IMG/VR virus record: IMGVR_UViG_3300036861_000596
Location: 1-51,604 of that record
From: a virus
Taxonomy: Duplodnaviria > Caudoviricetes
Direction: 5' to 3' (one strand)
DNA length: 51,604 nucleotides
Positions 28,666 through 32,929 of this stretch are shown in pieces. The notes beneath the pieces were generated by a model. That model made no database searches, was not told the origin of the DNA, and worked only from the letters and a program-made list of their open reading frames with translations. The translations under genes were made by a program, and so were the position numbers. The stretch's first letter is position 1; every line of letters begins with the position of its first letter.

Positions 28666-28989
28666 ATGCAAACCAAGACGGTTGAGACTTTCTGGGCCCG
28701 TATCAACATGAGCGGCCCGATTGATATAGCCAAGCAGACCATCCGAGTAGCCTGCTTACAGAAGGGGCTTTGCGTCACGGTACAACCCACTACGTTCATT
28801 TACACAGGCGGTGAAGAAGTTGGGTTTACCGTTGGTCTGCTTAACTATTCGCGGTTCCCAACGACTTCAGAAGAACTGACGGCGCGCGCACTGGATCTGA
28901 TGCAGCGTCTCCTTGAAGCGACGTGTCAACACTCGGGGCTCCTTATGACACCCGAGGAAACGATCTGGATTAGTAAGCGGAGTGAATAG
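28666..28989 (+). CDS. Conserved hypothetical phage protein
   Basis: GLCVTV.PT.FIYTGGEE.G...NY.RFP pattern. Confidence 0.7.
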   Translation: MQTKTVETFWARINMSGPIDIAKQTIRVACLQKGLCVTVQPTTFIYTGGEEVGFTVGLLNYSRFPTTSEELTARALDLMQRLLEATCQHSGLLMTPEETIWISKRSE

Positions 28990-29722
28990 GAAATTGCGAT
29001 GGGTAGCGTGGTTCTCCTGTGGAGCAGCAAGCGCGGTCGCCTCTAAGTTGACGGTCGAGCGACATGGTGCGGCCTGTGAAGTGGTCTACTGTGACACGCT
29101 AGCGACCGAGCACCCTGACAATGCCCGGTTTTTCTGCGCGGTTGAGGAGTGGATTGGTCAGCCTATCCGCGTGATCCGCTCATCCACGTATGACACGGTG
29201 GATGCAGTATTCGAGAAGACACATTACATGGCGGGGGTGTGGGGGGCTCGTTGCACGACTGAGATGAAAAAGCTGCCGCGACAACACTTCCAGCAACCTG
29301 GGGATGTTCACATATTTGGCTATACCGCCGAGGAAACAAAGCGGGCCCAGCGATTTGAGACGAACAACCCCGCGCTAGACGTGGAATGGGTGCTCATTGA
29401 GGCGGGAATCACGAAGGCGGAGTGTAAGGAGCGGTTGTCCGCAGCGGGGATTGCACTGCCCGCGATGTATGCGCTCGGCTTCAACAACAATAACTGTCTC
29501 GGTTGTGTTAAGGCCACGTCGCCTGGTTATTGGAATCGAGTTCGACGGCTCTTCCCGGAGGTGTTTGAGCGACGGGCCTGGCAATCCCGAAGCTTAGGTG
29601 TTCGACTTACGCGAGTACGTGGGAAGAGGATCTTCTTGGACGAGTTAGAACTCGAAGCTGATGCACCTGATGACACGGAAATTGATTGTGGGCCGGTGTG
29701 CCAGACCGTTGAGGCGACATGA
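28982..29722 (+). CDS. PAPS-reductase-like / adenine nucleotide alpha-hydrolase protein
   Basis: WFSCGAASA degenerate PP-loop, EHPDN, NNNCLGCVK. Confidence 0.75.
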   Translation: MNRKLRWVAWFSCGAASAVASKLTVERHGAACEVVYCDTLATEHPDNARFFCAVEEWIGQPIRVIRSSTYDTVDAVFEKTHYMAGVWGARCTTEMKKLPRQHFQQPGDVHIFGYTAEETKRAQRFETNNPALDVEWVLIEAGITKAECKERLSAAGIALPAMYALGFNNNNCLGCVKATSPGYWNRVRRLFPEVFERRAWQSRSLGVRLTRVRGKRIFLDELELEADAPDDTEIDCGPVCQTVEAT

Positions 29723-30162
29723 TCGTTAAGCCCGTCACATGTCAGGGCTGCCCCATGTTCCAGGACGGGCGCGGGTTCGTGCCTGACGAGATCGTGGACG
29801 GGGCGACCACCTTCGTGCTCGGGCAAAACCCGGGCGCGGACGAGGAGCGAGAGGGCCGCCCCTTCGTCGGCAAGTCGGGGGCGCTCATGGAGAAGGTGTA
29901 CTTCCCCATCGCGGGGCTCGTTCGGGGCGAATCGGTGTCGATCGGGAACGTGCTGCGGTGCCGGCTCATCGTCAACGGCAGGCGCTCCAACACGATGCCG
30001 GCGGGGGCCACGCTCAAGGCGGCCGTCGCCCACTGCACGGCGGCGTACCTGCGGATACCGGCGAGTACGAGGCTCGTCGTGGCGCAGGGGGCGTATGCCG
30101 TCAAGCTGATGGGTGGCGAGGATAAGAAGGTGAGCGAGTGGAGAGGGTTCTTGTTGCCATGA
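29719..30162 (+). CDS. Family-4 uracil-DNA glycosylase-like domain, N-terminal part
   Basis: CQGCP, GQNPG..E...GRPFVGKSG, NVLRCR, VVAQGAYA, WRG; lacks the terminal H-motif. Confidence 0.85.
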   Translation: MIVKPVTCQGCPMFQDGRGFVPDEIVDGATTFVLGQNPGADEEREGRPFVGKSGALMEKVYFPIAGLVRGESVSIGNVLRCRLIVNGRRSNTMPAGATLKAAVAHCTAAYLRIPASTRLVVAQGAYAVKLMGGEDKKVSEWRGFLLP

Positions 30163-30314
30163 GCTACGTCGTCTATCTCCACATCGTAATCGGGCTCGGC
30201 GTGGCGGCGGCCCGATTCCCTAACGTTGCGACAGCACCCTTCTGGGATATCCTCCTCACCGTTGCGATCTGGCCTGTGCTGATCGGCGGGTGGTTGTGGC
30301 GCACCCTACACTAG
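30159..30314 (+). CDS. 51-aa two-helix membrane protein (not in ORF track)
   Basis: MSYVVYLHIVIGLGVAAA...ILLTVAIWPVLIGGWLW; ATGA overlap. Confidence 0.6.
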   Translation: MSYVVYLHIVIGLGVAAARFPNVATAPFWDILLTVAIWPVLIGGWLWRTLH

Positions 30315-32236
30315 CCGTCCTCCACACCGCCGAGCTGCTGCGGGACCCGAAGATGGCGGTCCCGACCGCCAGTGACTGGGCGAAGGTGGGGCGGTTCTTA
30401 CGTGGGGAGTGGCCCCGCCGTGTCCCGCCGTCCCTCGTCAACCCAACCAAGCGCGAGCTAGAGGAGTGGTGCCGCTTTGCCGAACAAGCGCCGTTCGTCG
30501 TCATCGACACGGAGTACAACCCCGAGACGCTCTACCTCACGCTCGTTGGGCTCGGCTACCCCGGGGGGCCCGTCGTCCAGCTTGAGTGGCCGCACGTCTG
30601 GGACGGTCGAAAGGCAGTCTACGCCGCTCGACTCCGTGCATTGGTGGGGCATGTGCCCGTCGTGTTCCAGAATGCTTTCGCTGACATTCCGGTGCTCGCC
30701 GGGAACATGGCTATCGCCTATGGAGATTACGGTCGGGTAGACGACCTCATGCTCGCCCATGCGGTCTTGTGGAGCGAGCTGCCGCACGACCTGGGGTTCT
30801 TGGCGAGCCTGTACGGCGAGCACCCGAAGATGAAGCATCTAGCCCATATCGACCCGCTCCGGTACAACCTCGGCGACGTGGTCGATACGGTGAGTGCGTG
30901 GGAGGCGGTCTCGCGGGAGTTGGCGGCGGACCCCCTCAGCAAGCGTGTCTACGAGACCCAGTCCCTCCCCCTCATCCCGAGTCTGATGGAGAGTAAGCGA
31001 CATGGAATACGTATTGACCCTGCACAAGTGGAGCCCGCTTCTCGGCGCTTACGTGCCCGGATGGACAAAGCTCTTTTCACTGGCCACGCCTACACTGGCT
31101 ATCCAGTCAACCTTGGCAGCGACGATCAAGTCGCTTTCTGGCTCTACACCGTCGAAGGGCTCCCCGTCCAGCGCCACAAGGAAACGAAGCGGCCGACGAT
31201 CAACCGGGACGCCCTCACCGAACTCGCCCAAGCGCTCGGCGAGGACCACCCGCTCATCGACGCGCGCCTAGACTATGCCGACGCCCAGCAAGACTACACC
31301 AACTTTGTGGTTAAGGCCCTGCGTGATCCTGGAGGGCCCCTGGATGCAAGTAACGTACTGGACCGCTGGTACCCCAACGTTGCCATTCACGCCCAAGCAA
31401 GCGGACGCCACTCGACGACGGACCCGCCGCTCAGCTCACTACCGGGTGATCTTGAGTCTCTCCTAGTACCCGACGAGGGCGAGGCGTGGATCGACTACGA
31501 CTGGTCCAATATCGAGCCGCTCTTGCTCGCAGCCCTGACGGGAGACACCGCCGAGTATGAAGCGATCATGGCGGGGCACGATCTGCACACTCGTAATACG
31601 TGCGATGCGTTCGGCTTGGCGTATCCCCCGGTGCTGTCTAAGCCCGTGGAGGGGCGCCCCGAGAACCTGGTGTGGATGGAGCACGTGGGGTGGCAGGGGG
31701 AGCATGACTCCCGTCGCCGCTGGACCAAGGCGCTCGCCCTCGCCCTCAACTATGGCAAGAAGCCTGAGAATGCCCACCGTATCCCACGGACGGCCGAGGT
31801 GGGCCTGACCCGACAGACCGCCTACCAGGCGGCCCTGCGGTACATGAGCAAGCGAGGGAAGTGGAGTGCCTGGCGACAGCAAGTCCAGGCCGACATATCA
31901 AGCACCCGTCATCCTGAGTCTCGCACCTTCCTGGGGCGTCGGCGGCGTCTCCTCGGTGGTAGTGAGGTGGCATTCCGAGAGGCGCTTAATCATCCATGCC
32001 AAGGCGGGGTTTCAGACATTTTCAATACCACCCTCCTGGAGATTAAGCGACGCCTGCCTGGGGCTCGATATGTGCGGGGTCAGCATGACCGACAGGTGTG
32101 GGCCGTGCCGATAGGCGAGGCCGACGAGGCCCAGCAGGTGATCCGAGAGGTGGCGGAGCAGCCGTGGCAGATCAACGGGCGAGAGGTGCGGTTCCCGGTC
32201 ACGTTCAAGGCGATACGGAGGGGGGTAGGGGGATGA
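30290..32236 (+). CDS. polA: DNA polymerase family A with 3'-5' exonuclease domain
   Basis: ExoI VIDTEY, ExoII QNAFAD, ExoIII YNLGD; motif A DWSNIE, motif B RWTKALALALNYG, motif C QHD. Confidence 0.92.
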   Translation: MVVAHPTLAVLHTAELLRDPKMAVPTASDWAKVGRFLRGEWPRRVPPSLVNPTKRELEEWCRFAEQAPFVVIDTEYNPETLYLTLVGLGYPGGPVVQLEWPHVWDGRKAVYAARLRALVGHVPVVFQNAFADIPVLAGNMAIAYGDYGRVDDLMLAHAVLWSELPHDLGFLASLYGEHPKMKHLAHIDPLRYNLGDVVDTVSAWEAVSRELAADPLSKRVYETQSLPLIPSLMESKRHGIRIDPAQVEPASRRLRARMDKALFTGHAYTGYPVNLGSDDQVAFWLYTVEGLPVQRHKETKRPTINRDALTELAQALGEDHPLIDARLDYADAQQDYTNFVVKALRDPGGPLDASNVLDRWYPNVAIHAQASGRHSTTDPPLSSLPGDLESLLVPDEGEAWIDYDWSNIEPLLLAALTGDTAEYEAIMAGHDLHTRNTCDAFGLAYPPVLSKPVEGRPENLVWMEHVGWQGEHDSRRRWTKALALALNYGKKPENAHRIPRTAEVGLTRQTAYQAALRYMSKRGKWSAWRQQVQADISSTRHPESRTFLGRRRRLLGGSEVAFREALNHPCQGGVSDIFNTTLLEIKRRLPGARYVRGQHDRQVWAVPIGEADEAQQVIREVAEQPWQINGREVRFPVTFKAIRRGVGG

Positions 32237-32929
32237 GTGAGCGACGCGAGCAAGGTGCTGCTGCTCGATATCGAGGCTAGCAGCCTAGAGGCCGACTTCG
32301 GGCATTGCTATTGTTTCGGATACAAGTGGCTGGGCGAGAAGCGCCCGCGCATCCTCAGCATGACCGACTATGCCAAGCCCTGCACCACCTGCAAGCGGGT
32401 CGATACGATGAGCGATAAGCGGCTCATGCAGACGGTGTACCCGCTGATGAGTCAGGCGGATGTGTGGGTGGGGTGGTACTCGAAGGGGTATGACATTCGC
32501 TTCCTCAACACCCGCATGCTCGATGCGGGGTTGCCGCCCCTCCCGCCCGTCGCCCATGTCGATTTGTACTGGACGGCCCGGTGGCAGCTCAAGTTGTCGA
32601 GCAACCGGCTCGCCAGCGTCCAAGACTTTCTCCAGTTGAAGGCGAGCAAGACCCCGCTCAACAAGCGGGTGTGGCGACAGGCGCAGGCGGGGCATGGGCC
32701 CTCGCTCCGCTATATCGAGGAGCACTGCCTGGCGGATGTAGAAGTGCTGGAGCAGGCGTACGAGAAGCTCCGGCCGCTCGTGCGGTCCCACCCCCATGTC
32801 CGAGGACAGGGACCATGTCGGGTGTGCGGGAGCGAGAAGCTCCAGCGACGGGGGCTCGCCGTGGGGACGTGGGTCAAACCAAGGTATCGCTACCAGTGTC
32901 AGGAGTGTGGTGCATGGCAGACGAGGTGA
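32237..32929 (+). CDS. RNase H-like (YprB/RNase_H_2) exonuclease with C-terminal Zn ribbon
   Basis: LDIEA, YSKGYD, HVDL, HCLADV; CRVC...CQEC. Confidence 0.85.
   Translation: MSDASKVLLLDIEASSLEADFGHCYCFGYKWLGEKRPRILSMTDYAKPCTTCKRVDTMSDKRLMQTVYPLMSQADVWVGWYSKGYDIRFLNTRMLDAGLPPLPPVAHVDLYWTARWQLKLSSNRLASVQDFLQLKASKTPLNKRVWRQAQAGHGPSLRYIEEHCLADVEVLEQAYEKLRPLVRSHPHVRGQGPCRVCGSEKLQRRGLAVGTWVKPRYRYQCQECGAWQTR

Follow-up and report, generated by a model that had tools for sequence, protein, structure and literature searches.

In the phage genome studied here, a gene for a uracil-DNA glycosylase (UDG) fused to a DNA polymerase of the PolA type is broken inside the UDG domain, so that the two parts are encoded by separate open reading frames (ORFs). 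The genome is IMG/VR virus record IMGVR_UViG_3300036861_000596 (Duplodnaviria; Caudoviricetes), a complete record of 51,604 bp with direct terminal repeats and 66% G+C; the whole of it, positions 1 to 51,604, is called the window below. A genes-in-pieces split at a hot spot for mobile elements, mended by complementation between the fragments and with a small ORF in the gap as orphan cargo, is the likely explanation. The reading that the split domain may reassemble from two chains, as a preliminary description of the locus had proposed, is well supported by comparative evidence (recurrence of the break, own starts of the downstream fragments and constraint at the protein level) and by a co-folding model.

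The upstream fragment, UDG-N, is a family-4-type UDG without the last strand, motif B and the final helix. Of the 141 profile positions of Pfam family PF03167 (UDG), it matches only 6-98 (E 1.2e-11), and TIGR00758 is covered over positions 1-121 of 173, versus 1-167 by the fused homologue P0009. The whole family-4 fold is not found on this one chain, which reaches 51 bits with TIGR00758 against a cut-off of 125.3. With an E of about 1e-18, a profile of the N-fragments matches the solved family-4 UDGs 4zbx, 1ui0 and 1l9g/1vk2. The match covers residues about 12-147 of chains with 192-205, so that UDG-N lacks the last quarter of the domain. The fragment holds the CxxC...C...C cysteines and motif A (GQNPG). 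In the alignment with 1ui0 and 4zbx, cysteines stand opposite its C8 and C11 (the CxxC pair), C81 and C106, and these four we take to be ligands of a 4Fe-4S cluster. Among 54 aligned stand-alone N-fragments, Q36, P38, G39, N77, C81, R82, C106, G124, R142 and G143 are invariant; motif A reads GQNPG in the window and its relatives, with N37 nearly invariant as well. The public gene call of UDG-N starts at Met13 (135 aa, P0121; window 29719-29757) and drops the CxxC cysteines.

The frame of UDG-N ends in VSEWRGFLLP, with CCA at 30157-30159 and TGA at 30160-30162, and the remainder of the domain opens the polymerase ORF in another frame. This ORF starts with MVVAHPTLAVLHTAELLRDPKM (also written MVVAHPTLAVLHTAELLRDPKMAVPTASDWAKVGRFLRGEW) and carries, in this order, the C-terminal UDG piece (UDG-C), a 3'-5' exonuclease domain in which D73, T74 and E75 are invariant in the homologue alignment, and the family A polymerase. 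The polymerase chain holds the motif-B histidine, in LHTAELLRDP; in a family-4 UDG it is expected past the last strand, within HPS/HPA...LR. No interruption is found in homologues of 780-830 aa, which continue across the break (P0009 ...VSEWRGFLAPVHSLGAATKVLVTLHPADLFRDPKM..., also VSEWRGFLAPVHSLGAATKVLVTLHPADLFRDPKMRLP; P0013 ...DWRGFPHPDKPVLATLHPADLYRNPKM..., also DWRGFPHPDKPVLATLHPADLYRNPKMKL), and the N-terminus of the window polymerase aligns with the C-terminal UDG motif of these proteins. The two fragments have separate signals, namely the TGA at 30160-30162 and then GTG 30290 or GTG 30296, which would be the start used in the window; most relatives have ATG. The fusion broken within its UDG domain, and the displaced final motif, are thereby as the preliminary description had stated them, and all coordinates and codons it named proved correct when the sequence was checked again. 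Coordinates of the features are collected in Table 1.

Table 1. Features of the split UDG-polymerase locus, in positions of the window.
Feature	Position	Strand	Frame	Details
UDG-N fragment gene	29719..30162	+	1	147 aa; ends ...KKVSEWRGFLLP; PF03167, solved structures, TIGR00758
Break point	30157..30162	+		CCA (Pro147) then TGA; stop overlapped by the small ORF's ATG (ccATGA)
Small gap ORF	30159..30314	+	0	51 aa from ATG, or 58 aa from GTG 30138
Polymerase fragment gene	30290..32236	+	2	648 aa from GTG 30290 or 646 aa from GTG 30296; Pfam; phrog_17 from residue 8
UDG-C piece	30302..30424	+		residues about 5-45; strand TLAVL, motif-B H12 (LHTAELLRDP), next helix (DWAKVGRFLRGEW)
3'-5' exonuclease domain	30446..30814	+		residues 53-175; PF01612, E 2.4e-4, slightly short of the curated cut-off
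Family A DNA polymerase domain	31028..32233	+		PF00476, E 1.2e-25; DNA polymerase I models

The same break was found in many relatives. Ninety related loci were taken from viral and metagenome contigs, and the 76 that match the polymerase N-terminus were classed: 48 are fused in one open frame, 13 are split, and 15 have no UDG-N in the 15-4000 nt available upstream. The split count includes one contig twice, as L003 and L020 from two collections, and a pair, L058 and L059, with the same gap and ORF layout. Two of the 15 loci classed as lacking UDG-N are also split: L001, in which the same strand bears a UDG-N about 4.1 kb upstream, and L033, in which a UDG-N tail and a separate polymerase start were recognised by eye. 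L096 is a further split viral locus. Every split lies between the WRGF and LATLH strands, at a single break point in a short loop of variable length that joins the WRGF strand to the last UDG strand; the spacing in fused loci varies there by about 66 nt.

In each split case the N-fragment ends just past WRGF (WRGFLRP and stop in L003, WRGFLKP in L096, WRGFLGA in L057 and L060). The ending seen in the window, WRGFL-x-P followed by the stop, is also that of L003, L096 and 7 of the 13 database fragments ending exactly three residues past WRGF. Downstream fragments begin a few residues ahead of the strand and usually with an ATG of their own (MKALATLH, MNGLATLH, MKTLAVLH, MQILTLLH, MIAQPYKAVLAALH, MSMPEILAVLH), and the fused forms have no Met there. 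The gaps measure 130 (the window, from UDG-N to the polymerase ORF), 187, 204, 231, 357, 434, 463, 482, 575, about 880, 1750 and about 4100 nt; that of the window is the shortest except for a doubtful 13-nt break in L022.

Database proteins give a similar picture. Among 91 polymerase homologues, 45 are fused and 26 have no UDG and start at most 40 residues before the motif; the rest comprise 9 called from a conserved Met just past the motif, like the public call of the window polymerase, 2 of other kinds and 9 without an N-terminal match. The motif-B histidine is kept in 25 of the 26 split-type proteins and in 38 of the 45 fused ones. The WRGF motif is present in 63 of 68 UDG-N-like proteins (80-258 aa), of which 50 end within 14 residues past the motif and 13 exactly three residues past it. 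Three UDG-N-like proteins that continue into motif B are probably cut-off fused forms.

Several side observations concern the same loci. In L022 (170-420) two frame changes occur within about 100 nt, relative to the fused forms, with nearly no gap, and the contig name gives a coverage of 3. L057, L058, L060, L033 and L022, the sub-clade closest to the window, have a longer, remodelled motif B region, LHLS(S/G)RNEG.KGKDGGLSR.A.EM instead of LHPADLFRDPKM, with the histidine retained. In L057, L058, L060, L009/L083-L085, L066-L070 and L076-L080 the polymerase ORF stops at about 360-575 aa while the tblastn match continues; the matches span 2.2-2.9 kb versus about 1.9 kb expected, which suggests that the family has one or more additional break or insertion sites within the polymerase. 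The window polymerase is uninterrupted.

The content of the gap varies widely among the split loci. Endonuclease VII/HNH genes are present in L003 and L077 (PF02945, E 2e-17 and 6e-24), and the two proteins have only the Endonuclease VII core in common. The gap of L013 contains a weakly D12-methylase-like ORF with a DPPY motif; that of L064 (1.75 kb), several ORFs including a DUF7666 protein; those of L058 and L060, ORFs of about 115 aa without a family; and that of L091, an 82-aa cysteine-rich ORF. Two different phages, L014 (600-773) and L096 (5732-5965), hold homologous small gap ORFs (45% identity over 38 aa, E 1e-11), which have the motif CS.C..LGSF...EQ..EGA..RAE in common and belong to no Pfam or PHROG family. 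The gap of about 4.1 kb in L001 (L001 1-3920; virus record G001, about 32.3-36.4 kb) has ORFs of 316, 324 and 331 aa, of which one belongs to the RGP family (PF03214, E 3.5e-19) and one is weakly glycosyltransferase-like. Judged from these sequences, the break site acts as a slot with a changing content.

One insertion is recent. L077, which is split and carries an HNH gene, was compared with the fused loci L079/L080: identity is 96% over 779 nt upstream and 97.4% over 3451 nt downstream, and between these flanks 608 nt of L077 stand for 135 nt of L079. The part replaced corresponds to the last 50 or so codons of UDG-N. In its place the cassette of L077 has a diverged copy of these codons with a stop, then the HNH gene, then the ATG from which the polymerase fragment begins and which overlaps the stop of the HNH gene. 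The pattern resembles homing driven by an endonuclease, one flank having been co-converted, and would fit the nuclease genes reported at phage exchange boundaries in excerpts of PMC10448857.

The gap of the window itself is occupied by the small ORF only. It overlaps the UDG-N stop through ATGA and the polymerase ORF by 25 nt, and has two hydrophobic stretches, residues 1-18 and 28-47 (Kyte-Doolittle about 2), in agreement with the two helices described before. The alternative start at GTG 30138 has AAGGTG 6 nt upstream. G+C by codon position is 0.61/0.45/0.78, which is gene-like and as in the neighbours, and a public gene call exists for the ORF (P0190). Chance ORFs of such a length are common at 66% G+C (62 ORFs of at least 30 aa overlap a 5-kb span), a point that is neutral or speaks against a real gene. 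A search of 5.8 billion proteins found only the ORF itself; it matched no Pfam or PHROG family, and tblastn against 118 loci gave nothing at split sites, with a best E of 0.066 elsewhere. Resemblance to the hydrophobic ORF in the L057 gap was dismissed, as 136 of 500 shuffles scored no lower, and so were leads from a protein atlas, all below 0.9, the GhoT/OrtT-like cluster at 0.85 not being backed by Pfam. At the edges of the gap, a search for repeats turned up none but short and weak ones. The inserted membrane-protein gene proposed in the preliminary description is a plausible ORF with coding-like composition, though an orphan with no relative in any of these searches. It is read here as cargo of the insertion slot, and may have a real product.

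In addition, a small ORF that overlaps both neighbours, with no promoter-like or terminator-like site nearby, may pass ribosomes from one fragment to the other. That the loop is a standing cargo slot, with the small overlapping ORF as a translational bridge that keeps the halves equal in amount, is possible though tentative.

The history of the break was explored with a quick, unrooted maximum-likelihood tree of 56 distinct polymerase sequences, in which only residues after the motif were used; 21 of the 77 rows were excluded as duplicates, as shorter than 170 residues, or since their match started after residue 35. At least seven changes between fused and split states are required, and four of these are forced by well-supported branches. 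The window clusters with L022, L033, L057, L058 and L060 (Shimodaira-Hasegawa-like approximate likelihood ratio test, 91), and all six members are split. Polymerase identity inside this clade is about 50-55%; since every member is split at this level of divergence, the break in the window appears inherited and old.

The retained piece is equally constrained in split and fused forms. Over the strand and motif B (45 nt), the mean pairwise DNA identity at the three codon positions is 0.66/0.70/0.38 in 19 non-fused sequences, which include loci where no UDG-N was seen, some of them perhaps cut-off fused genes, versus 0.63/0.66/0.36 in 28 fused ones. The conservation of DNA around motif B is that of protein-level constraint and marks no endonuclease target site. 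The retained piece and the N-fragments appear to be translated and constrained protein, not a relic.

Binding of the two chains is supported by a co-folding model of UDG-N (alignment A2) and residues 1-50 of the polymerase (cut from alignment A1). Scored at 0.93 (0.93, 0.88 and 0.94 in three runs) versus 0.03 for the best of three controls, the model has a contact agreement of at least 94% between runs and a predicted local distance difference test value of at least 76 for the partner. In the predicted interface, polymerase residues 5-17 pack against UDG-N residues 117-125 and 141-146, and the helix at 25-34 against 60-67. The borrowed polymerase strand is modelled between two strands of UDG-N, so that UDG-N alone would be without an inner strand. 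Together with the equal constraint on the retained piece, the model gives indirect support to the assembly of the fragments into a working enzyme.

The sequence of events may have been as follows. The ancestral gene would have encoded a single chain of family-4-type UDG, 3'-5' exonuclease and family A polymerase, and mobile DNA would have broken it by inserting into the surface loop that leads from the WRGF strand to the last strand of the UDG. As no endonuclease is found in the window, the origin of its gap is deduced from the relatives: the window lineage would have inherited an old break, now a 130-nt remnant with an orphan hydrophobic ORF of 51-58 aa. UDG-N, the small ORF and the polymerase would be overlapping cistrons, probably co-transcribed and separately translated. 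The UDG fold is most likely restored by non-covalent complementation, giving a composite active site with motif A and the four cysteines on UDG-N and the motif-B histidine on the polymerase; such reassembly would also dock UDG-N onto the polymerase, and glycosylase function may have been retained.

A number of observations weigh against this explanation. The gap of the window contains no endonuclease gene, only the 51-58-aa ORF, whereas such genes do lie at the break in L003 and L077. No ATG precedes the motif in the window polymerase, and the only candidates are GTG 30290 and GTG 30296 behind a weak Shine-Dalgarno-like GGCGG. The public polymerase call (P0001, 627 aa) starts at ATG 30353, past the motif, and so is without the UDG strand and motif B (30290-30355). 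The split of L022 may be a sequencing frameshift at coverage 3. The tree was made by a quick method and has several long branches. The passing co-fold score may reflect likeness to many solved UDG structures and not binding, and its calibration, by which 58 of 80 solved complexes and 2 of 110 mismatched pairs attain 0.93, is only rough since own alignments were used. The family-4 consensus of motif A is GE(A/G)PG; motif A is here GQNPG, and motif B has HT in place of HP. Because of these departures, UDG activity is uncertain. Beside these points it may be mentioned that two short-call patterns, starts at MYQDG... and starts at the conserved Met after motif B, recur in many database relatives.

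The departures of the motifs bear on another explanation, in which the split inactivated the UDG and the halves, no longer assembling or acting, persist as relics or in new roles such as DNA binding or processivity. The remodelled motif B (LHLS(S/G)RNEG...) of the sub-clade near the window (L057, L058, L060 and L033) would agree with it, and excerpts of two papers point in the same direction: UDG-like domains fused to polymerases have been proposed to act in processivity without catalysis (PMC3201878), and catalytic residues are reported as lost in N4-like fused UDGs (PMC13697223). Decay of this kind is nevertheless judged unlikely, given the ten invariant residues of the stand-alone N-fragments, the equal constraint on the retained piece with its almost universal histidine, the persistence of split forms over lineages only about 50-68% identical, and the predicted place of the polymerase-borne strand inside the UDG-N sheet. 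Joining of the two frames in expression, the other route named in the preliminary description, would be achieved by a ribosomal bypass with take-off at CCA-UGA (30157-30162) and landing at a CCU (in-frame CCT codons lie at 30251, 30254 and 30305), giving a fused chain as in T4 gene 60. A simple frameshift is impossible, since frame 2 is shut by TAA at 30221-30223. The take-off codon is indeed followed at once by the stop, frame 2 stays open from 30224 on, and landing at 30305 would yield a loop length near that of the shortest fused homologues; in T4, moreover, the bypass element of gene 60 lies together with an inserted homing endonuclease. Gene 60-type bypassing is also marked by a stable take-off stem-loop and a short coding gap of about 50 nt. 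Neither is found here: the distance is 92-146 nt, and the fold of the gap RNA (30145-30325) does not stand out from shuffled sequence, with a z of +0.76 and 161 of 200 shuffles folding equally well. Nor are the take-off and landing codons identical (CCA versus CCT), and the composition of the gap is that of a gene in the third frame. Because relatives' gaps of up to 1.75 kb and about 4.1 kb hold genes, and the downstream fragments have their own ATG, the family needs no bypass. We regard bypassing as highly improbable, and no better a case can be made for its part-time form, in which some ribosomes would cross the 130-nt gap from CCA-UGA to the CCU at 30305 and make a fused UDG-polymerase beside the separate chains; the combination of cargo slot and translational bridge is more likely than this. 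If it were true, it would be a second natural long-range bypass, arisen at a homing-endonuclease scar like that of T4 gene 60.

Restoration of one chain by splicing, with the gap as an intron or with split-intein halves flanking the break, has a smaller chance still. HNH genes lie in two of the gaps; a title cited in PMC2988022 records group I introns with HNH endonucleases in SPO1-like polymerase genes, and excerpts of PMC2677866 describe 'fractured genes' in which split inteins occur together with a homing endonuclease. An Rfam search of 29400-30700, with E up to 10, returned two chance-level matches only and no intron family, and no Rfam family reached its gathering score in 10 split loci. 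To our knowledge, 130-140 nt is below the length of known self-splicing introns, and the fold of the gap is unremarkable. No Hint or intein family was found, and UDG-N has no extra residue past the native loop; because UDG-N ends three residues past WRGF and the polymerase begins six before the strand, there is no room for intein halves. Splicing would also leave the ATG starts of the relatives' downstream fragments unexplained. Least credible of all is an artefact, that is, a stop and frame change made by misassembly or sequencing error. The record is a metagenome assembly, and the L022 break may come from low coverage. However, contigs of a second assembler from two runs (9338 and 6802 nt; contigs rather than raw reads, from runs that are possibly the source samples) span 29700-30700 with 0 differences and no joints, the same architecture is found in many independent samples, and a 130-nt insert with a gene-like ORF is not a point error. 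The split with non-covalent reassembly is accordingly retained as the preferred explanation.

The split gene lies in a tight same-strand string of genes (window 28982-29722 and 32237-32929). Upstream is a PAPS-reductase-like gene (phrog_424), the end of which has an ATGA overlap with the start of UDG-N, and downstream a gene for an RNase H-fold 'DNA polymerase exonuclease subunit' (phrog_403, PF13482) begins 1 base past the polymerase stop. A scan of 29500-30500 found no promoter-like or terminator-like site; given this, the ATGA overlap at the UDG-N stop and the 25-nt overlap with the polymerase ORF, the layout is operon-like. The sequencing runs that contain the window DNA are labelled soil metagenome. 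A search of GenBank phages with DNA 29719-32236 gave no match, a scan of viral contigs with a single protein found nothing, and a scan of genome contigs returned only an unrelated bacterial PolA at 23% identity. The best GenBank phage matches come from uncultured phages; they are fused, with a polymerase identity of 30%, and on this evidence the family of the window appears remote from every named phage.

The recurrence of the break amounts to a repeated natural split-protein experiment, in which one UDG loop tolerates breakage and about 45 residues of strand plus helix on a polymerase can serve as a docking peg for a partner of 147 residues. With it, genes-in-pieces would reach beyond a few T4-type cases and take in a large family of uncultured phages as well as family A polymerases. 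A single site is reused by different cargo, and the edge of the recent HNH cassette is a boundary of sequence exchange too. The split also explains why gene callers report a 'partial UDG' beside a polymerase that apparently starts at an internal Met; such pairs should not be counted as pseudogenes. The loop may further be a candidate break point for engineered split glycosylases.

Both the mechanism class, genes in pieces, and the UDG-fused phage PolA are known. Literature searches found no paper on a split UDG-PolA, and in the available text of PMC13697223, its supplementary alignment lying outside the count, none of the words split, intron, intein and homing is found. New are the host gene, the cut inside a small domain that leaves a strand-and-helix peg, the lack of insertion tails in the window, and a single loop that different cargoes have used again and again across a large uncultured family. 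An N-terminal UDG on phage PolA has been described for SPO1-like, N4-like and T5 phages in excerpts of PMC3201878; the preliminary description had named such fusions for SPO1-like polymerases. The available text of PMC13697223 distinguishes N4-like, SPO1-like and SP15-like groups and reports that the UDG of the SP15-like YerA41/phiLo is active ahead of the fork. The window's fused relatives belong to this class, having the same domain order and conserved UDG motifs A and B. In contrast to the SP15-like proteins, the window has no large inserts (648 + 147 aa versus 1306 aa in YerA41).

T4 gene 60 resembles the window locus in the stop directly after a potential take-off codon and in the endonuclease-linked region, which is seen here in relatives. 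It differs in that the codons here are unmatched, the gap is longer, no stable structure is predicted, the gap ORF is coding-like and the arrangement is not conserved in relatives. Excerpts of PMC2988022 place the T4 topoisomerase genes 39/60, with mobA, in the same mechanism class as genes in pieces. A closer likeness is offered by the polymerase of family B encoded by gene 43, which is split into 43A and 43B in Aeromonas phages 25 and 44RR (Petrov et al. 2010, cited in PMC2988022); according to the same excerpts, the two products co-purify and are active. A replicative polymerase is in two pieces in both systems, and the presence of a seg endonuclease in one phage and of a short intercistronic sequence in 44RR, as reported there, parallels the contrast of L077 and L003 with the window. 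The break in gene 43 lies in the polymerase proper, whereas here a family A polymerase is broken in its accessory N-terminal glycosylase domain.

The nearest model for the mechanism is nrdA of Aeromonas phage Aeh1, split by the homing endonuclease gene mobE and described as 'genes in pieces' in excerpts of PMC3045599 and PMC2988022. As reported there, insertion of the endonuclease gave two cistrons, the products of which reassemble into active enzyme with no RNA or protein splicing, and the insertion-derived tails of NrdA-a and of NrdA-b are indispensable. The window has no such tails, UDG-N ending at the native loop, and its gap has no endonuclease. In the present family the host gene is UDG-PolA, the cut falls inside a domain of about 190 aa and leaves one strand and a helix on the other chain, and one site takes many different cargoes across a large family.

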